Shown here: positions 16,327 through 57,509 of the stretch, piece after piece
Position numbering within the stretch: position 1 is the stretch's first letter
Layout of the letters: each line of letters starts with the position of its first letter
Assembly: GCA_005881435.1 (NCBI GenBank)
Contig: VBHP01000031.1
Coordinates: 15,242 to 79,241, forward strand
Direction: 5' to 3'
Length of the DNA stretch: 64,000 nucleotides
Origin: Chloroflexota bacterium
GTDB lineage: Bacteria; Chloroflexota; Limnocylindria; P2-11E; CF-107
Notes under the pieces: generated by a model
Seen by the model: the letters and a program-made list of their open reading frames with translations, nothing else
Databases searched by the model: none
What the model was told of the DNA's origin: nothing
Program-made: the position numbers and the translations under genes

Positions 16327-16330
16327 CGAA

Positions 16331-17539
16331 TCACTCCAGCTTCCGGATCGCCGGCAGCGCCAGGCCGGCCAGCCCGAACAGCGCGATGACCGCGCCTCCC
16401 GCGACGAAGACCGGCGATGCTCCGAACGCGGCAATCATCGCGCCGCCCACGACCGGGGCGATCGGCGCCAGCAGCGAGCCGCCGAACATATCGACGCTCG
16501 AGACTCGTCCGAGGTACTCGCGCGGCACATAGCGCTGCAGCGCGTTGACCCACGGCACCTCGAAGCCGATGAGACAGGTGCCGCTAAGCGCGGCGAAGGC
16601 CAGCGCGACGAGCAGGTTCGGCGACACACCGATCCCCGCCAGCGCCAGCCCGAACAGCGCCGTATACAGGTACAGCACCACGCCGACGCGGCGGTAACGG
16701 AACTGGCCGACGATGAACGCACCGAGGAGCTCGCCGAACCCCGTCGCGCCCGTCACCAGGCCGAAGACCGTGGCATCTCCCGCGAACGTGTCGCGCACCA
16801 GGATCGGCAGTCCGGTCCAGGCCGCGATGTAGGCGGCGACGACGAAGGCGAATCCGAAGATCGTCACCCACAGCCACGTGAGCGAGAACGTGAACCGTAG
16901 GCCCGCGCCGATCTGCGACAGGATCGATCCGCTCACCTGGCCGGCCGTCGTCGTCGTCGCGCGCATGGCGTAGACCGCGCCGAAGCTGACGAAGAACGTC
17001 AGCGCGTTGAACGCGAACGCGGCCGCGGGTCCGGCGGTGCCGATGAGCAGGCCGGCGAAGACGGGACCGACGAGCAGACCAGCCTGCCGCGAGAACGAGC
17101 GCAGCACGTTCCCTTGCAGCAGGACCGCCGCCGGTACGACCTCGGGGATGATCGCCTGCATCGCCGGAAAGAAGAAAGAGAAGGTCGCGCCGTTGATGGC
17201 CGCGGCGACGTAGAGATGCTCGACGCGCAGCAGGCCGGCGGCGGAAAGCCCCGCGACTGCGGTGAAGACGGCGCCGTTCGCGATGTCGCTGGCCAGGATC
17301 ACGCGGCGTCGCGGCAGCCGGTCGACCACCGCGCCGCCGAGCAACAGGAAGATCAGGCCCGCGGCGGCCAGGATTCCCGAGACGATGCCGATCTGGACCG
17401 GCGAGTTCGTCAGCAGCAGCACCTGCCACGGCAGCGCGATCTGGTTCACGAAGTTGCCGACGGCGGAGAAGGTCTGCCCGCTCCACAGCAGCGCGAAATC
17501 GCGGTTGCGCAGCGGCTCGACCAGACGCGGGACCCGCAC
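16331..17539 (-). CDS. MFS transporter (EntS/YbdA-like efflux family)
   Basis: 12 predicted TM helices. The upstream Arg-rich in-frame extension is rejected; start assigned to a GTG that overlaps the HAD stop (TAGTG). Confidence 0.7.
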   Translation of the reverse strand: MRVPRLVEPLRNRDFALLWSGQTFSAVGNFVNQIALPWQVLLLTNSPVQIGIVSGILAAAGLIFLLLGGAVVDRLPRRRVILASDIANGAVFTAVAGLSAAGLLRVEHLYVAAAINGATFSFFFPAMQAIIPEVVPAAVLLQGNVLRSFSRQAGLLVGPVFAGLLIGTAGPAAAFAFNALTFFVSFGAVYAMRATTTTAGQVSGSILSQIGAGLRFTFSLTWLWVTIFGFAFVVAAYIAAWTGLPILVRDTFAGDATVFGLVTGATGFGELLGAFIVGQFRYRRVGVVLYLYTALFGLALAGIGVSPNLLVALAFAALSGTCLIGFEVPWVNALQRYVPREYLGRVSSVDMFGGSLLAPIAPVVGGAMIAAFGASPVFVAGGAVIALFGLAGLALPAIRKLE

Positions 17540-31057: not shown

Positions 31058-31090
31058 GAGGTGGCGTCCGGCTTGCACCGTCGCCAGGCC

Positions 31091-31909
31091 ATGCCTCGCT
31101 CGATCTGGAAAGGTGTCATCAGCTTCGGTCTGGTGGCCATTCCGATCCGCGTGTATCTCGCCACCGAGAGCAAGTCCATCCACTTCCGCCTGCTCTGCCC
31201 GAAACACAAAGAACCGATCAAGATGCGCCGCTGGTGCGTCGAGGGCGAGCACGAAGTCGCATGGAACGAGGCGCTCCGCGGTTTCGAGATCTCAAAGGGA
31301 CGCTACGTGATCCTCGACGAGAAAGACCTGGAGAAGATCCCGCTGCCGACGACCAAGGCGATCGAGATCTCGCGCTTCGTCACCGAAGAGGAAGTGCAGG
31401 GCGAGCTGTACTTCCAGAGCGCCTACTACCTCGAGCCCGAGAAGGCCGCCGCCAAGCCGTACGCGCTGCTGCGCAAGGCGCTCGATGAATCGAAGCGCCT
31501 GGCCATCGCGAAAGTCGCGTTCCGCGATCGCGAGCACCTCTGCGCGCTGCGACCGGTGGACGAGGTGCTCCTGATGAACACGCTGTACTGGCCCGACGAG
31601 ATCCGCTCCTATCAGGACCTGGACCTTCCGGAGCGCGTGACCGTCAACGCGCGAGAGCTGCAGATGGCGAAGAGCCTCATCGACGCCATGACCGCCGAGT
31701 TCGATCCGTCCGAATTCAAGGATGAGTACCGCGAGGCGCTGCTCGAGCTGATCAAGGCCAAACAGAAGGGCAAGGAAGAGATCGTCGAGGTCGAAGAGCC
31801 AGAGCCGACGGCCGTCGCGGATCTCATGGACGCGCTGAAACGCTCGGTCGAGGCCACCAAGAAGGGCGAGCGCGCGCGAAAGGCCGGCCGCAAGCCGCGC
31901 GCGGCATAG
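31091..31909 (+). CDS. ku: Ku protein (non-homologous end-joining DNA-end-binding protein)
   Basis: MPRSIWKGVISFGLVAIPIRVY Ku core; lysine-rich C-terminal tail; slightly lower GC than the surroundings. Confidence 0.85.
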   Translation: MPRSIWKGVISFGLVAIPIRVYLATESKSIHFRLLCPKHKEPIKMRRWCVEGEHEVAWNEALRGFEISKGRYVILDEKDLEKIPLPTTKAIEISRFVTEEEVQGELYFQSAYYLEPEKAAAKPYALLRKALDESKRLAIAKVAFRDREHLCALRPVDEVLLMNTLYWPDEIRSYQDLDLPERVTVNARELQMAKSLIDAMTAEFDPSEFKDEYREALLELIKAKQKGKEEIVEVEEPEPTAVADLMDALKRSVEATKKGERARKAGRKPRAA

Positions 31910-32933: not shown

Positions 32934-33758
32934 ATGCCTGCTACGCCGATCACCGACTGGGGCACGGCCTTCATGACCTCGATGGCCGCGGCGCTCGCGC
33001 TCCTGCTCGGTGGTATCCCCAAGCTCATCGCCTTCGCGCTCATCCTCATCGTCGGCTGGATCATCGCCAGCATCGTCGGCGGCGCCGTCAGCCGGCTGCT
33101 GCAGACGATCCAATTCGAACGGTTCGCCGAACGCTCCGGCCTGCGTGGGTTTGTGCGCCAGATGGGCGTGCAACTCGGCGCGTCCCAGCTCGTCGGCGAG
33201 CTGGCGAAATGGCTGATCCGCGTCGTCACGCTCGTCGTCGCCTTTGACGCGCTCGGCCTTCCGGCGGTGTCCCAAGCCCTGCAGAGCCTGCTGCTGTGGC
33301 TGCCGAACCTCGTTGTCGCGATCGTCGTGCTCGTGCTCGGCGGTCTCGCGGCGACAGCACTCTCGCGCCTGGTGCGAGGCGCGACTGCGGAGGCCGGCTT
33401 CAGCAATCCCGGTCTTCTGGCCACGATCACCAGCGTCGCGGTCTTGGCCTTTGCGGTCCTGATCGCGGTGAACCAGATCGGCGTGGCTGCGAACATCGTG
33501 AACATCCTCTTCACTGGCATCGTCGCGGCAGCCGCGTTAGCCTTCGGCCTCGCGTTCGGGCTTGGCGGCCGTGACGTCGCCAACGGCATCCTGACCAGTT
33601 GGTATCAGGGCGGCGCGAACGTCGGAGCTCGTACGAACCGCGTCGTCGCCGCCGCGCGCGAGCAGGCTGCGGCCACCGAGCCCGGCGCCACACGCCGCAT
33701 GACCGAGCCTGCGGAGAACGGCGATCTCGTCCCACCCGCGGAGCGCACGCGCCGCTAA
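32934..33758 (+). CDS. Membrane protein with conserved TM-helix repeats (MscS-associated 'TM helix' repeat-like)
   Basis: GGAGGG Shine-Dalgarno 7 nt upstream of the ATG; repeated amphipathic TM modules; Gly/Ala-rich. Confidence 0.5.
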   Translation: MPATPITDWGTAFMTSMAAALALLLGGIPKLIAFALILIVGWIIASIVGGAVSRLLQTIQFERFAERSGLRGFVRQMGVQLGASQLVGELAKWLIRVVTLVVAFDALGLPAVSQALQSLLLWLPNLVVAIVVLVLGGLAATALSRLVRGATAEAGFSNPGLLATITSVAVLAFAVLIAVNQIGVAANIVNILFTGIVAAAALAFGLAFGLGGRDVANGILTSWYQGGANVGARTNRVVAAAREQAAATEPGATRRMTEPAENGDLVPPAERTRR

Positions 33759-33767
33759 TCCCGCGCG

Positions 33768-33809
33768 CGCCAACAAAAGAAGCGGCGGCTCATCAAAATG
33801 GCCGCCGCT
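33768..33809 (-). terminator. Rho-independent terminator (bidirectional hairpin between convergent genes)
   Basis: AGCGGCGGC-N11-GCCGCCGCT perfect 9-bp stem, followed on the minus strand by GCTTCTTTTGTTG. Confidence 0.55.
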
Positions 33810-33832
33810 TCGTCACGTTGTGAGGCGGAGTC

Positions 33833-33913
33833 TTAGTGGCCGACGCCGAGCAGGAACAGCAGGATGATCAGGCCGAGGGGAACACCCAGCAGCCACAGCA
33901 GGATGAGGATCAT
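33833..33913 (-). CDS. 26-aa hydrophobic micropeptide (MILILLWLLGVPLGLIILLFLLGVGH)
   Basis: Strong GGAGGT Shine-Dalgarno 8 nt upstream of the ATG; single TM helix; lies between the membrane-protein gene and the terminator. Confidence 0.4.
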   Translation of the reverse strand: MILILLWLLGVPLGLIILLFLLGVGH

Positions 33914-33928
33914 CTTTGGTTACCTCCG

Positions 33929-34540
33929 TTAGCGCACGCCGATACGACGCGCGTCGGTCTCGTGCGTGACGAGATCGCGGCGCCGCTCGAGCGCGAGCGT
34001 CATAGGCTCGCCCGACGCCATCCAGCCACCGATCACAGAACCGATGAGGCCGATGAGCAAGCCGGCGACGGCGAATCGCGCCGCGTTTTCGGCCGCTGCA
34101 GCCGGGATGTTCTGCACCGCGGGCTGTCCGAGCGGGACGGCAAGGCCGGAGAACCAGCCACCGAGATAGGAAGCGCCGCCAAGTGCGATCGCAATCAGCA
34201 GGATCGGGATCCCCGACAGCCACACCAGAGCGCCGTGCAGTAGCGCCGGCTCGGCACGGGTGAAGCCGGCGATCTTTCCGGCGACCCACCCGCCGACGAC
34301 GCCCGAGAAGAACGCGCCGACGACGGCGAACAGCGCTCCGAGGAGCGTGACGTCGCCGTAGCGATTGATGGGCGCGGGCGCGCCGGTCTGATGCGCGCCG
34401 ACGGCGATACCGGTGAGACCGATGACCACGGCGACTGCCAACCCAGCGAGCACACCGACCCAGACTGCGCTCCAGTACACGGGCCAGGCACGCCAGGGCT
34501 CGCCGCGCCGAACGACAGTGACGTCCGCGTCGCTACGCAT
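33929..34540 (-). CDS. Hypothetical 4-TM membrane protein with GxxxG glycine-zipper helices
   Basis: VVGGWVAGKIAG and SVIGGWMASG motifs; co-directional with the AAA gene and the micropeptide. Confidence 0.5.
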   Translation of the reverse strand: MRSDADVTVVRRGEPWRAWPVYWSAVWVGVLAGLAVAVVIGLTGIAVGAHQTGAPAPINRYGDVTLLGALFAVVGAFFSGVVGGWVAGKIAGFTRAEPALLHGALVWLSGIPILLIAIALGGASYLGGWFSGLAVPLGQPAVQNIPAAAAENAARFAVAGLLIGLIGSVIGGWMASGEPMTLALERRRDLVTHETDARRIGVR

Positions 34541-34655
34541 AAAGCCCTCCTCGCGATAGATGCAGGCAGCAAATGCAGCCGCTGTGCCAGTGGCACCTTT
34601 GAAGAAGGGCTCGCTTCGGTGAGGATCGGTCAGGCGTGCGGAGGTCGCGGGTGAG

Positions 34656-35975
34656 TTACGCCGAAGCGGACGCCTGCACGAAGTAGCTTTCGCACGCCAA
34701 CGTCAGCAGCTCCGGTGAGAACGCGGGAGGCTCCTCGCGGTACGCCGCCATGTCGACGAGCTGCTCGACGATGTCGCGCGGATGACACGAGCGCGGGATG
34801 ATGCGCCGCTCGGCGCAATACGACAAGACCGTCGCGACCGCCTGCGGTTGGAAGGCGACGCCGGCGCGCTCGCAGACGCGGCGGAAGATTTCGGCGTACT
34901 CCTCCGGCGTGGGCGAATCGATGCGCAGCTTGTACCGAATGCGCCGCAGGAACGCCTCGTCGACAAGATCCGCCGGTGCGAGGTTCGTGGCGAAGACGAG
35001 CAGAAGCTCGAACGGAAGCTCGACCTTGGCGCCGTTGTGCAGCGTGTAGTAATCGACGCCGCGATCGAGCGGGACGATCCAGCGGTTCAGCAGCTCGGCC
35101 GGCGGCACCCGTTGCCTGCCGAAGTCGTCGATCAGCAAGATGCCGCCAGTCGCTTTCAACTGCAGCGACGCGTGATGGATTCGCGAGCTGGCCTGATATC
35201 CGAGATCGAGCAGCTCGAGGGTGAGCTCGCCGCCGGCGACGACGAGCGGGCGCGCGACCGCGATCCAGCGCGCGTCCATGCGCGTCCCGTCCGGAACGGG
35301 GAGCGGACGGTGATGCACCGGGTCGTAGACGCGCACGATCTGATCGTCGACCAGCACCGCGTGCGGCATCAGCACGGCTCCGGGTTGTGCCTTTCCAAGT
35401 ACTTCGGCGATCGTGGTCTTGCCGTTGCCAGGAGGGCCGAAGATGAACAGCGAGCGACCGCGGTTGAATGCCGGTCCGAGCGCATCGAGGACGCGTCGCG
35501 GCAGCACCAGATTCGCGAACGCTCGCTCGAAATCGGCGCGCCGCAGACGCGAGCGCACGCCGGCTTGGGCGCGAATGCTGGCGATGTAGTCGGTGACCGG
35601 CACCGGCGCGGGTCCGAGGTATTCGTTGCGCTCGAGCGCCTCGCGCGCCCGCATCTCGCCGGCTTCGGAGAGCCCGTATTCGAATGTCGAGGACGCGACG
35701 GCGGCGCTGCGACGGACTTCGGCCAGCCGCTCCGCCTTCAAGAATTCGAGGACGTTGTCGACGACGTGTCGCAACGGCAGTCCCAGGATCTGCGCCACGT
35801 CCGTGGCTGTGACCTGTCCGCGGCGGTAGAGCGCTTTCAGGACGAGGTCGACGAGAACGATGAAAGGAAGGCCGGTCTCGGCGATGGAGGCCGGTTCCCG
35901 CGGGACGGCTGGCGCCGCCGGAGCTGAAGCCGGGGCAGCCCTCGGGGCGCTCAGGACTTCGGTCGCCGTCTTCAC
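34656..35975 (-). CDS. AAA+ ATPase with an N-terminal winged-helix-like region
   Basis: Walker A IFGPPGNGKTTIA, Walker B LLIDDFG, sensor/arginine-finger region; GGAGGA Shine-Dalgarno before the start. Confidence 0.7.
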   Translation of the reverse strand: MKTATEVLSAPRAAPASAPAAPAVPREPASIAETGLPFIVLVDLVLKALYRRGQVTATDVAQILGLPLRHVVDNVLEFLKAERLAEVRRSAAVASSTFEYGLSEAGEMRAREALERNEYLGPAPVPVTDYIASIRAQAGVRSRLRRADFERAFANLVLPRRVLDALGPAFNRGRSLFIFGPPGNGKTTIAEVLGKAQPGAVLMPHAVLVDDQIVRVYDPVHHRPLPVPDGTRMDARWIAVARPLVVAGGELTLELLDLGYQASSRIHHASLQLKATGGILLIDDFGRQRVPPAELLNRWIVPLDRGVDYYTLHNGAKVELPFELLLVFATNLAPADLVDEAFLRRIRYKLRIDSPTPEEYAEIFRRVCERAGVAFQPQAVATVLSYCAERRIIPRSCHPRDIVEQLVDMAAYREEPPAFSPELLTLACESYFVQASASA

Positions 35976-36343
35976 AGGTCCTCCGTTTTCGGTCGCCGCG
36001 GGGCCGGGGTCCCATCCAGCCCTGGCGCGCGATCGTAAGGGCGACGGTCTGCAAAAGTCATCACTCCCCCGGTGGTACTAGGCATGGCGGCGGGGGACGT
36101 GGCAGTGGCGAGGTGGTGCGCGTGACCGCGCGGAGGTCAAAAGCGCGAAAAGGAGCGGTGAGACCGTCTAACGGGTGGCTCGTTCGGAGTGTTAGGACAG
36201 AGTCGTAGCTGCAAGGTCGCTCGGCGCGATGAACACTTGAGGCACAAGCGAGCGGCGCCGATTCAGCAGCGTTCGCGAGCAGCCGCGTCCCCCGCGCGCA
36301 CGTCATGATCCTGTCGTCCACCGTCGATGCGAGAATTGAGTCG

Positions 36344-36417
36344 GGGCCGCTAGCTCAACGGCAGAGCAGGAGACTTTTAATCTCTTGGTTCCGGGTTCGA
36401 GTCCCGGGCGGCTCACC
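36344..36417 (+). tRNA. tRNA-Lys (anticodon UUU)
   Basis: Manual cloverleaf: acceptor GGGCCGC/GCGGCUC with one G-U pair, D-arm GCUC-AACGGCA-GAGC, anticodon stem GGAGA/UCUCU with loop CUUUUAA, T-arm CCGGG-UUCGAGU-CCCGG, discriminator A, genomically encoded CC. Confidence 0.85.
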
Positions 36418-36467
36418 GCAGACCGGCAATCAGTCAAGTCATCGGCGCCGCGCTACGCTTCGACTGG

Positions 36468-37487
36468 ATGCCAACGAAAAAAGGAACGGTCAAGGCCACA
36501 AAGGACACCGGCAAAAAGGCGCCGGCGCGCCGCTCGCGCAAGCCCCAGGAACCTCGCGGCCCGGAGCCGCACGAAAGTCTGATCGACTCCGGCGGTACGG
36601 ACATGGCGATGCTGTCCGCCCAGGTCGAGCAGGCCGGTGGGGCGGTCCTCGGCGCATATCGCGATCCGTACGCCGGGGCGCCGCTGCTGCTGGCTTCACT
36701 GCCGCTGCGCAAAGTGGAGCCGACGCCGTTCCAACGCGACCTGTCGAAGACGCATGCTGACCGCCTGATGGAAGCCATCGGCGCCGCCGGCCTGTTCCTC
36801 GATCCGGTCATCGCCTCACCGGCGGACGGCGGCTACTGGACCCCCAACGGCAGGCATCGTCTCGAGGCCGCGCGCCGGTTGGGGATGCGCGCGATCACCG
36901 CGCTCATCGTTCCGGACGAAAAGATCGCCTACCGCATCCTGGCGCTGAACACCGAGAAGGCGCACAACCTGCGCGATCGCTCCATGGAGGTCATCCGCAT
37001 GGCGCAGCGGCTGGCGAAAGAACAACCGAAGACGAAGGAAGCCGACCACGCGGTCACCTTCGAGTCGCCGGCGTTCCTCACGCTCGGCTCGGTCTACGAG
37101 CAGCGGACGCGCTTTGCCGGCTCGTCGTACCAATCGATGCTCCGACGGGTCGACCGTTTCCTCGATCAACCGCTCCCGAAAGCGCTGCGGCAGCGTGAGC
37201 AATGGGCGGTCCGCCTGATGGATATCGACGATCGCGTCGCGGCGCACGTGAAGACGATGCAGGAGCTGGGCTTCAAGAGCCCGTACCTGCGCGCGCTCAT
37301 CGTCGCGCGGTGCAATCCGGTGCGGTGGGTGCGCTTATCGACGAAGAAGGACGCGCCGCCGCCGATGTCGATGGCCGAGGCGCTGACGCGCATGGCCGCG
37401 AACGTCAGGAAGTTCGATCCCAAGAGCGTGAAACCGGGCGACCTCGCTCTCGTCGCCGCGATGTCGGGGTCGGCAGCGGAGGAGTAG
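36468..37487 (+). CDS. ParB/sulfiredoxin-fold nuclease-like domain protein with a lysine-rich (histone-H1-like) N-terminal tail
   Basis: ParB-type core DPVIASPADGGYWTPNGRHRLEAARRLG; N-terminus MPTKKGTVKATKDTGKKAPARRSRKPQ. Confidence 0.55.
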   Translation: MPTKKGTVKATKDTGKKAPARRSRKPQEPRGPEPHESLIDSGGTDMAMLSAQVEQAGGAVLGAYRDPYAGAPLLLASLPLRKVEPTPFQRDLSKTHADRLMEAIGAAGLFLDPVIASPADGGYWTPNGRHRLEAARRLGMRAITALIVPDEKIAYRILALNTEKAHNLRDRSMEVIRMAQRLAKEQPKTKEADHAVTFESPAFLTLGSVYEQRTRFAGSSYQSMLRRVDRFLDQPLPKALRQREQWAVRLMDIDDRVAAHVKTMQELGFKSPYLRALIVARCNPVRWVRLSTKKDAPPPMSMAEALTRMAANVRKFDPKSVKPGDLALVAAMSGSAAEE

Positions 37488-37490
37488 CGG

Positions 37491-38102
37491 CTAGCGGAGC
37501 CCTTCCGCCACGAATGCGGCGATGAGCTCCAGGACCTCTTCTCCGTACTTGGCTTTGAACATCGCCTTCGAATGCTCTCGCCCGGGAAACAGGCGCAGCG
37601 TCTTCGGCTCCTCGGCATCGGTGAAGGCCTGCGTCACCGCGGCCGCCGCGCCGAGCGAGTCGCGCTCGGCGCAGACGAAAAGCTTGCGCCCGAGGATCCG
37701 TTTCGCGTCGCCGTCAGAGAGCGCCCGGACCGGCGCGCTGATGGCGACGACGGATTCGGGCGACACGGCGGCGGAAGCCATCAGCACCGCATGCCCGCCC
37801 ATCGACGCTCCGACCAACGCGACTTCACGCGCGCCGCTGGAGCGAAGCCAGGCCGCGGCATTCCGCACATCGACGGGCGCGCTGTTGCGGTTCGTCCTGC
37901 CGCTCGAGCCGTCATAGCCGCGAAAGTTCAGGGCCAGGACGGCGAGGCCGCGCTTGGTGAAGCGGCCGGGGATTTCGCCCCAGCCCGAGGCATCCCAGTT
38001 CGCGCCGTGACACAGCAGCGCGGCACGTGAGGACGGCAACTCGCCGTGGAGCGCGGCGACCAGCGTCGCGCCCTCCGATTCGAGCCGGACCTCACGCGCC
38101 AC
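37491..38102 (-). CDS. Alpha/beta hydrolase (dienelactone-hydrolase-like)
   Basis: Nucleophile elbow GASMGG, about 200 aa. Confidence 0.7.
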   Translation of the reverse strand: MAREVRLESEGATLVAALHGELPSSRAALLCHGANWDASGWGEIPGRFTKRGLAVLALNFRGYDGSSGRTNRNSAPVDVRNAAAWLRSSGAREVALVGASMGGHAVLMASAAVSPESVVAISAPVRALSDGDAKRILGRKLFVCAERDSLGAAAAVTQAFTDAEEPKTLRLFPGREHSKAMFKAKYGEEVLELIAAFVAEGLR

Positions 38103-56739: not shown

Positions 56740-56957
56740 CGGAGCGCCTCCCCTGGCGACGGCCGACGGCCTTTCCGTCCCACCACCTCGCGCGCGCTAC
56801 GTGCCGGCGGCACCAGCGCCCCTGCCCCATTCAGACCCGGTGATCGCTCGCCACTGCATCAACGCCCCCGCGCGAAAGAGGCGTTACGAGCGTGCCGATA
56901 GGAAAGTCGTTCGACTGAAACGAATCGTGGGCGTAGGCAAGCGTGTCGAAAAACGGG

Positions 56958-57509
56958 TCATCGCGGCCACACCCGAGTGAACCCGTGCGGATACTCGACC
57001 ACGAGGCCGTCGGCGTCGAGCACGATGTCCGAGCGGAACGTGCCCGACTCGAAACGGTGCATCGTGCCATCGTCGCGCCGGACCAGGCAGGTGTAGCGCT
57101 GGCGTGAGATGCCGACGCGCAGATCGGGAACGTCGACGTACGCGACGCTCAGCTCCTGCGACGCCAGTGGCGCGAGGTCGAGCCGCCGCACCGGCAGGGT
57201 GTTCGTGAACGGCGTCACCGACAGATCGACGTCGATGCAGCCGTCGAGCGCCGCGATCGCTCGGCCCTCGGCGGTGCGCCAGTTGCCTTCGCCGTCGGCA
57301 AGAAGCACAACGCTCTTTGCGGCATCGAGCAGATCGACGTGCAGCGAGCGCGTCCGCCAGCGCTCATCCCATTCGACGGCGTAGCGTGTGCGGAAGGGTT
57401 GATCGCCGCGGATGCCGATGACCATCCCATCCGCCACTCGCCCCGTGACGCGACAGTGCTCGAACCCGGGTCCGCGCACCGGCGTCCACATCACCTCGCG
57501 CGGCTTCAC
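56958..57509 (-). CDS. Hypothetical protein (possibly glycolipid-binding DUF1089-like), translationally coupled to carB
   Basis: GTG overlaps the carB stop (GTGA); an internal ATG at 57491 is an alternative start; the upstream extension is antisense to carB and was discarded. Confidence 0.4.
   Translation of the reverse strand: MKPREVMWTPVRGPGFEHCRVTGRVADGMVIGIRGDQPFRTRYAVEWDERWRTRSLHVDLLDAAKSVVLLADGEGNWRTAEGRAIAALDGCIDVDLSVTPFTNTLPVRRLDLAPLASQELSVAYVDVPDLRVGISRQRYTCLVRRDDGTMHRFESGTFRSDIVLDADGLVVEYPHGFTRVWPR

Follow-up and report, generated by a model that had tools for sequence, protein, structure and literature searches.

Background

What is an orphan gene of the ParB fold, with no parA beside it, doing directly behind a transfer RNA gene, and is the non-coding DNA in front of that tRNA a functional RNA? 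These questions are raised by positions 36060-37487 of a 64,000-nucleotide stretch of contig VBHP01000031.1 from a Chloroflexota bacterium (assembly GCA_005881435.1), and this whole stretch is called the window hereafter. A preliminary description of the locus had reported a spacer of about 280 nucleotides (nt), a tRNA-Lys(UUU) gene and an open reading frame (ORF) of 339 amino acids (aa) with a ParB/sulfiredoxin (Srx) core. The closest public proteins are those of 'Chloroflexi bacterium 13_1_40CM' and of Candidatus Dormibacteraeota metagenome bins, which places the window in a Dormibacterota from soil.

Here we present a sequence and structure analysis of this locus and its relatives, from which it is likely that the locus is ordinary core chromosome, consisting of a tRNA gene, a composite spacer, a conserved orphan ParB/Srx-fold gene and a small interval of gene flux. 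The coordinates and sequence quotations of the preliminary description were accurate for the tRNA, the C5/G5 runs, the 339-aa ORF and both protein motifs. It had also named an unconserved spacer and a core, syntenic ParB-like gene as the marks of an ordinary locus, and this is largely what was found: the spacer is for the most part without conservation and the ParB-like gene is core, syntenic and chromosomal.

Results

A ParB/Srx-fold family carried across about ten bacterial phyla

The ParB-like gene is core, syntenic and strictly chromosomal in the collections searched. More than 8000 homologues of its product were found, and 185 stretches in one-genome-per-species data encode a relative. 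Among the best 80 of these 185 stretches, compared at full length, the carriers belong to Dormibacterota, Myxococcota (including the cultured Labilithrix luteola), Acidobacteriota and Gemmatimonadota, with further members in Burkholderiales, Planctomycetota, Spirochaetota, Opitutales, Armatimonadota and Fibrobacteraceae, and the identity between phyla is 43-57%. The family is carried across about ten bacterial phyla, mostly by soil organisms. At a threshold of E<=1e-30 only ~160 clusters (50% identity) were recovered among 1.84 billion representatives, and the family is therefore compact and slowly evolving. At closer range, 110 of the 136 nt differences that separate the ParB-like gene from its counterpart in L081 (related loci carry L numbers here) are third-position changes, and the first 48 residues hold half of the 24 amino-acid substitutions.

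Searches for signs of mobility or defence were negative. No homologue was found with tblastn in 72,556 plasmids and 50,697 phage records, and none of the PADLOC 2.0 families matches the ParB-like protein at E<=1. No recurrent neighbour was seen in 68 loci, and none is conserved across phyla; the neighbours in other phyla, read from their sequences, are presumably GlnS, TypA, the glycine-cleavage T protein (GcvT), adenine deaminase and branched-chain keto-acid dehydrogenase. These housekeeping neighbours, together with the lack of a PADLOC hit and of plasmid or phage homologues, speak against the suggestion that the gene is defence-related.

Conservation within the family is concentrated in a set of motifs. 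PTPFQRDLS..H..RL, the Box I-like FLDPxIA, WTPNG-x-HR, LNTEKAHNL, SPYL and NPxR are invariant; in the window the corresponding domain motifs are PTPFQRDLS, FLDPVIA, NGRHR (the GxxR phosphate motif) and LNTEKAHNL. The NG-x-HR form is present in 258 of 273 members, with Arg at the variable position in 232 of the 273. Furthermore, members share an N-terminal tail (median 26 aa, 36% Lys or Arg, net charge +9) which is followed by an invariant Gly (G31), and an acidic tip at the C-terminus is found family-wide.

Fold and architecture of the ParB-like protein

The ParB-like ORF (36468-37487, + strand) starts with MPTKKGTVKATKDTGKKAPARRSRKPQ and carries GRHRLEAARRLG as residues 128-139. A basic N-terminal tail (residues 1-30, 36468..36557) is predicted to be disordered, with a predicted local distance difference test score (pLDDT) of less than 50 over residues 1-22. 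Next come a helix, a beta-hairpin extension and the ParB/Srx-fold, putatively nucleotide-binding domain (residues ~44-165, 36597..36962), and the remainder is an all-helical C-terminal half (residues ~166-339, 36963..37487) which ends in the acidic tip (..AAEE) and has no known relative.

Sequence matches of the protein are weak and mutually consistent over residues ~75-190. Pfam PF02195 (ParB_N) scores 13.2 bits, below its gathering score of 26.3, and recognizes just 13 of 71 family members even at E<=0.1; TIGR00180 scores 16.3 bits against a cut-off of 58.45, and TIGR04285 is also far below its cut-off. By sequence, the best matches in the PDB are sulfiredoxin (E 3.8e-4), Helicobacter pylori ParB (E 5e-3) and SerK (E about 1), while a profile search of the PDB gave nothing beyond Srx and SerK; ParB-like families of PHROGs match at E about 1e-5. 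With Foldseek, the predicted structure aligns with canonical ParB, Noc and KorB at E about 3e-6 over ~190-210 columns, and with SerK only over a fold core of ~75 residues. The model has the three-dimensional fold of the ParB N-terminal domain, and the GxxR phosphate-binding motif (Box II) is present as G128-R-H-R131. The ParB/sulfiredoxin-fold assignment of the preliminary description is borne out by these weak, consistent sequence matches and by the fold match.

The two ends of the protein fared differently. The C-terminal domain had been called uncharacterised, and it matches no Pfam model and no solved structure; no helix-turn-helix (HTH) type DNA-binding domain or C-terminal dimerisation domain was detected in the protein. 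We also considered the C-terminal half as a ParB-type HTH domain, a candidate which the search did not support. The N-terminal tail had been compared to histone H1. Histone H1-like or AKKA-repeat bacterial tails are long (tens to hundreds of residues), repetitive and rich in Lys, Ala and Pro. The tail in the window is basic and predicted to be disordered, and it is 29 aa in length and without internal repeats. Since it is short and non-repetitive, 'H1-like' overstates its character. Readings of the tail as an AT-hook or as H1-like were both rejected, as it has no RGRP core and no repeats.

Possible functions of the ParB-like protein

Because the Box I and GxxR elements are retained, our best guess is that the ParB/Srx domain would bind a nucleoside triphosphate through them. 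The basic, disordered tail would provide non-specific affinity for nucleic acid or dock a partner, and the novel helical C-terminal half would supply the family-specific function. As there is no ParA-binding motif, no detected HTH and no parA neighbour, the protein is not expected to act as a ParABS centromere clamp. The leading reading from these features is a nucleotide-binding housekeeping factor which may be associated with nucleic acid or with a partner and which would not be a clamp. The 'nucleoid-associated' role proposed earlier is a possibility to which the basic tail alone points.

In its fullest form this reading would make the family an unstudied, slowly evolving and strictly chromosomal branch of the ParB/Srx fold, defined by the basic tail, the beta-hairpin extension, a GRHR pocket, the new all-helical domain and the acidic tip, and having a conserved nucleotide-dependent housekeeping function. 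That function might be exercised on the nucleoid, for example, or on a nucleic-acid or protein substrate, and would be distinct from partition, nucleoid occlusion, and the activities of Srx and SerK. Taken as a whole this proposal is tentative, and we consider it unlikely to hold in all its parts.

The alternative that survives best makes the protein an ATP-dependent enzyme like Srx, SerK and SbnI, a phosphotransferase acting on a protein or a small molecule, and not a nucleotide-gated, DNA-associated switch or scaffold. We regard it as possible, if somewhat unlikely. The best PDB match by sequence is sulfiredoxin, with SerK also listed, the phosphate motif is G-x-H-R as in Srx and SerK and not G-E-R-R as in ParB, and the position of the ParB catalytic Glu is variable; the G-x-H-R form and the best matches appear to lean to the ATP-binding Srx/SerK branch. 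Invariant Q89, R90, D91, H96, H130, E163, K164, H166 and N167 suggest an active site, and the helix pair 191-212, at the place of a would-be ParB HTH, reads as hydrophobic and unlike a recognition helix. Also, SerK and Srx are placed among uncharacterised orphans in a published survey (PMC12704722). Against this, the catalytic Cys of Srx is absent, its place being taken by Arg in the same 232 of 273 members, and the NCBIfam SerK model (NF053625) scores 15.5 against a cut-off of 380; judged by its sequence, the protein is neither a sulfiredoxin nor a SerK equivalog. Additionally, a basic tail kept throughout the family would be more expected of a protein that binds nucleic acid or a partner than of a small-molecule enzyme, and no metabolic gene is consistently linked.

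A further alternative, that the protein is a divergent centromere-binding or partition-related ParB working with a ParA-type ATPase encoded elsewhere, as a PadC-like adaptor would, is very unlikely. The ParA-binding motif LG[KR]GL, with the definition (L/F/I)G(K/R)G(L/F/I) taken from PMC12704722, occurs in the first 60 residues of none of the 273 full-length members, and neither the window nor any of about 90 related loci has a parA nearby. The low TIGR00180 score and the failure to detect an HTH or C-terminal dimerisation domain speak against it as well. The view that the gene does not encode a partition protein was correct in this respect, as was the statement that no parA is adjacent: the gene has a divergent AAA+ gene on one side and a convergent alpha/beta-hydrolase gene (37491..38102, - strand; Pfam Abhydrolase_6, E 5e-12) on the other. 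We retain the nucleotide-binding housekeeping factor as the leading reading of the ParB-like protein.

The tRNA-Lys gene borders a small site of gene flux

ARAGORN reported a single tRNA in the 64 kb, tRNA-Lys(UUU) at 36344..36417 (+ strand; call Lys(ttt)). It matches Rfam RF00005 with 66.3 bits against a gathering score of 29 (E 4e-14), and is the sole Rfam match above the gathering threshold across the whole window. At its 3' end CC is encoded and the terminal A is not. The gene is 100% identical in L081, and the orthologues show compensatory stem changes; it is a functional housekeeping tRNA gene. The motif TGCGAnAAT lies 7 nt ahead of the tRNA in the window, L081 and L090, in surroundings which are not conserved, and L091 has TACAAT at this position. 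In the window the extended -10-like element is TGCGAGAAT (36328..36336, + strand). From its form and position we suggest that the tRNA is probably transcribed from this extended -10 promoter of its own, with the last ~16 nt of the spacer as the putative tRNA promoter. A terminator scan gave one terminator-like site, on the wrong strand and inside the ParB-like coding sequence, which is within chance expectation.

The upstream boundary of the ParB-like gene is a small gene-flux spot, of which the window shows the empty configuration. Between the window and the relatives examined, the interval from tRNA-Lys to the ParB-like gene differs, holding 0-3 unrelated accessory genes over 0-2.7 kb. The window has 50 nt and no gene (36418..36467, + strand); L081, L082, L083 and L086 have a gene for a 188-aa ICMT/PEMT-like membrane methyltransferase; L090 has an extracytoplasmic function (ECF) sigma factor and a 132-aa gene; and L091 has three genes, of which one encodes 285 aa, one a PIN domain and one DUF1326. 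L084 has the tRNA next to the ParB-like gene in inverted orientation, and an S-adenosylmethionine (SAM) methyltransferase gene follows on the AAA+ side of this tRNA. L085, L092 and L093 have no tRNA at the site and carry AbiEi_2, LigD or glyoxalase genes upstream. On the other side, the ParB-like gene keeps the downstream alpha/beta hydrolase (also in L081, L082, L084, L085, L090 and L091), a 153-aa gene and a transketolase-like gene in relatives. With constant genes on this side and changing cargo upstream, the ParB-like gene is part of the backbone.

The preliminary description had noted that tRNA-Lys genes are hotspots of integration, that no integrase or att repeat was visible and that the flank should be compared with related genomes for insertion boundaries. 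We found no integrase among the adjacent genes in the window or its relatives, no second copy of the 25-nt tRNA 3' end (<=3 mismatches) in the 64 kb, and, in a search for att-like repeats, chance-level GC-rich repeats only; composition is flat around the locus, without anomaly. The hotspot idea stands in a weak form, in that accessory genes vary on the tRNA side, with no integrase and no att site. Among close relatives, small accessory genes come and go in the interval without the signatures of site-specific integration. That the ParB-like gene belongs to a defence system, or to a mobile element inserted at tRNA-Lys, as its position 50 nt from the tRNA, the accessory and toxin-antitoxin-type genes (PIN, AbiEi_2) of the relatives and the weak IetA-like matches of the neighbouring AAA+ protein (27.7 against a cut-off of 510 bits) could suggest, is highly improbable for a backbone gene with housekeeping neighbours in other phyla, no PADLOC hit, no homologue in plasmid and phage collections, and no integrase, att repeat or compositional anomaly around it.

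Several observations were made on the flanks of related loci. In the distant Dormibacterota loci L002, L004 and L005 the ParB-like gene adjoins a tRNA-Tyr/tRNA-Thr pair, in either orientation; adjacency of the gene to tRNAs is recurrent in Dormibacterota, and no adjacent tRNA was seen in other phyla. The methyltransferase gene of L084 (4088-4873, + strand) is ArsM/UbiE-like and has an in-frame TGA (ELWSG*IAGAL), past which the reading frame stays open for another 57 codons; 12 nt after the TGA begins a 7-bp hairpin, which is no more stable than shuffles. We take the TGA position to be that of a conserved Cys in ArsM-type enzymes, and the TGA could be a selenocysteine codon or the mark of a pseudogene. 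The ParB-like gene of L092 has LigD Prim-Pol and DNA-ligase genes as divergent neighbours. The window itself has a Ku gene (31061-31909, + strand; Pfam Ku, E 3e-43) between GHMP-kinase and radical-SAM genes, which are directly adjacent in L081 and L084, with no Ku between them; either the window's lineage gained Ku or these relatives lost it. The link to non-homologous end joining that Ku and LigD might give the locus is probably a coincidence.

The spacer is best read as a composite

The spacer between the AAA+ gene and the tRNA had been described as a GC-rich, structured non-coding stretch which is either a leader or non-coding RNA, or the promoter region of the AAA+ genes. At 62-65% its GC content is slightly below the 68.7% of the window over 64 kb, so that it is not GC-rich in its context. 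The C5/G5 runs are as reported (CCCCC at 36066-36070, GGGGG at 36091-36095) and are able to pair; the CCCCCGG...CGGGGG pair is conserved, with a register shift in L084. Neither the ORF list nor the codon-signature map has a coding-like ORF between the AAA+ start and the tRNA.

Conservation was measured against L081 and L086 (~86% DNA identity) and L084 (~80%); in matched slices, coding sequence is 87% identical to L081 and 80-82% to L084. The block at 36019-36096 is 91% identical in L081 and 81% in L084, equal to or above the flanking coding sequence. Beyond it, identity at 36097-36196 drops to 75% in L081 and 52% in L084, homology with L084 having ended near 36096. Homology with L081 and L086 runs from the AAA+ gene through 36196 and then jumps to ~20 nt before the tRNA, leaving 36197-36323 without a counterpart in either. 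When 36062-36343 and 36418-36467 were searched for traces of the cargo genes of relatives and for any further homology, only the leader matches of L081, L086 and L084 came up. Conservation in the spacer is confined to ~35-135 nt next to the AAA+ gene and ~16 nt before the tRNA, and constraint appears from the alignments to be limited to ~80 nt straddling the 5' end of the AAA+ transcription unit.

That the 280-nt stretch is a structured non-coding RNA or a riboswitch-like leader is, on these data, extremely unlikely. It has in its favour a long non-coding gap with complementary C5/G5 runs, a conserved first ~35 nt and a minimum free energy (MFE) structure which pairs 36088-36098 with 36279-36290. 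The long-range partner lies in 36197-36323, which L081 and L086 lack, and the intervening 36097-36196 is just 52% identical in L084. The MFE of the spacer has z = -1.17 on the + strand and -1.01 on the - strand against dinucleotide shuffles, which does not sustain the term 'structured', and the local CCCCCG/CGGGGG hairpin (36066-36095), predicted in all three relatives, has z -0.3 to -1.2 and is no better than shuffles. The preliminary description had proposed an Rfam scan of 36060-36343, and no covariance model matched there: with Rfam 15 at E<=10 over 35800-36600, nothing but the tRNA itself was found beyond chance snoRNA-type matches at the edge of the spacer, and the whole-window scan at the gathering threshold gave nothing in the spacer.

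Of the choices offered before, the conserved ends favour a promoter and leader for the AAA+ gene, and the fold and Rfam results disfavour a non-coding RNA. The spacer is best read not as an RNA gene but as a composite of an AAA+ promoter/leader, drifting filler and the tRNA promoter, in which the fast-evolving middle (36097..36323) would evolve freely and be lineage-specific in part, its first section (36097-36196) being weakly conserved. It is also not clearly the longest intergenic region of the window, as had been stated. In a crude map of GC content at third codon positions, stretches that include 56740-57505 (766 nt) and part of 16327-17538 (up to ~1.2 kb) have no ORF of the expected signature, and these may be longer intergenic regions; Rfam at the gathering threshold gave nothing in either.

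The AAA+ gene, its leader and an upstream ORF

The AAA+ ATPase gene encodes 439 aa (34656..35975, - strand) from a GTG start at 35975 with GGAGG in front. The protein has an N-terminal winged-helix-like region with weak TFIIE/SufR/MkoB matches at residues 40-110, a Walker A sequence GPPGNGKT with weak Pfam AAA/AAA_16 matches and an NSF/Sec18 P-loop match, and a lid domain that weakly matches the anti-phage ATPase IetA/IteA and TRIP13, all far below cut-offs. The gene is 87% identical to that of L081 at the nt level, and 141 of 163 differences are at codon position 3. An AAA+ homologue with 40% identity was seen in an unrelated context in L088.

The conserved block on the AAA+ side (36019..36096, - strand) is probably the promoter and 5' leader of this gene. 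Read on the - strand it contains TAGTACCACCGGGGGAGTGATGACTTTT, and GGGGGAG stands directly before the ATG of a possible 29-codon upstream ORF (uORF; MTFADRRPYDRAPGLDGTPAPRRPKTEDL and a stop; 35972..36061, - strand). The uORF begins with ATG at 36061, reads MTFADRRPYDRAP at its start and ends in a TGA which overlaps the GTG of the AAA+ gene. Its length and stop overlap are retained in the window, L081 and L084 as GTGA, GTGA and TTGA despite internal compensating indels, and similarity of the peptide across these lineages is limited to the N-terminal 13 residues. This retention suggests selection for translation through the leader, that is, translational coupling, and not for the peptide. A metagenome scan with the AAA+ protein found four loci, of which two are near-identical to known relatives and the distant ones are without the uORF. 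The uORF may serve in translational coupling or as a leader peptide, for which the comparison is suggestive only. The CCCCCGG...CGGGGG pairing would mask GGGGGAG.

Downstream of the AAA+ gene, a segment of ~640 nt (33934-34572) which overlaps a 203-aa membrane-protein ORF (33929-34540, - strand) is missing from L081 and L086. These relatives therefore do not share the 'AAA+ operon' of the preliminary description, and their AAA+ gene is on its own. The contig Ga0066709_100007935 (L087) is 99.5% identical to the window over 33000-35935 and ends in the N-terminal part of the AAA+ gene, before the spacer; this end may reflect strain-level variation which breaks assemblies at the spacer.

Points that weigh against the reading

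The account given above has evidence to set against it at several places. ParB_N is below threshold in the ParB-like protein, so that membership in the fold is assigned mainly by predicted structure, and 17 of 28 purified ParB-fold proteins bound no nucleoside triphosphate in vitro (PMC12704722). According to the same study, sequence does not predict the nucleotide specificity of the fold, whose role differs between families, from switch to enzyme to scaffold. As to the promoters, the assignments are based on 3-5 sequences, and a generic sigma-70 scan gave no promoter and no full sigma-70 site, which is why the promoter role of TGCGAnAAT is put forward here as an inference. For the uORF, the comparison covers three lineages, its substitutions are not biased to synonymous changes, and the spacing from the Shine-Dalgarno-like GGAG to the ATG is very short. 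Finally, the spacer may give rise to a lineage-specific small RNA.

Discussion

The locus itself matters little, and the clean definition of a very large orphan ParB/Srx-fold family is the useful by-product of its analysis. The family has a cultured carrier, Labilithrix luteola DSM 27648, and knowledge of its nucleotide specificity and partners would extend the work on the CTP, ATP and GTP switches of the ParB/Srx fold. The site of flux by tRNA-Lys, in turn, is an example of accessory-gene turnover in Dormibacterota that proceeds in the absence of classical integration machinery.

Comparison with known systems

The site resembles tRNA-linked genomic islands in that the gene content directly 3' of the tRNA varies among related genomes. 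Unlike such islands, it is accompanied by neither an integrase nor a direct repeat of the tRNA 3' end, its cargo is limited to 0-3 genes, and in L084 the tRNA is inverted rather than flanked.

Among proteins of the fold, sulfiredoxin is a single domain of ~100 aa with a conserved Cys in G-C-H-R, whereas the ParB-like protein, at 339 aa, is three times this size, has extra domains and belongs to a family in which no conserved Cys occupies this position. The C-terminal domain of SerK and SbnI is also absent, and the basic tail and the novel helical half set the protein apart from Srx, SerK and SbnI alike. With canonical ParB, Noc and KorB the family shares the N-terminal fold, the Box I-like FLDPxIA, the QR of the 'PxQPR' motif and GxxR. 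Unlike them, it has no parA neighbour or ParA-binding motif and shows no conservation of the catalytic Glu of GERR, and an HTH or dimerisation domain was not detected, with TIGR00180 and TIGR04285 far below their cut-offs. PadC of Myxococcus xanthus is a CTP-binding protein that has a ParA-binding motif and brings ParA to the bactofilin cytoskeleton (PMC12704722). Compared with its ParB-like domain (PDB 6ryk), the present family lacks the ParA motif and carries the fold in its N-terminal half, with a different helical partner domain.

The nearest parallel is the orphan ParB-CTPase-fold class described by Kaljevic et al. 2025 (PMC12704722), bacterial proteins of at least 300 aa with extra domains absent from Pfam. 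The ParB-like protein fits this class in size, in its extra non-Pfam domains and in having no assigned nucleotide specificity. Most members of its family fall below the PF02195 threshold used by that survey, and surveys built on this model probably under-sample the family. Orphan ParB-fold proteins are frequently encoded on mobile elements and diverge fast (PMC12704722), a general picture of mobile-element passengers which the present family contradicts: in the collections searched it is strictly chromosomal, and it evolves slowly, keeping 43-57% identity between phyla.

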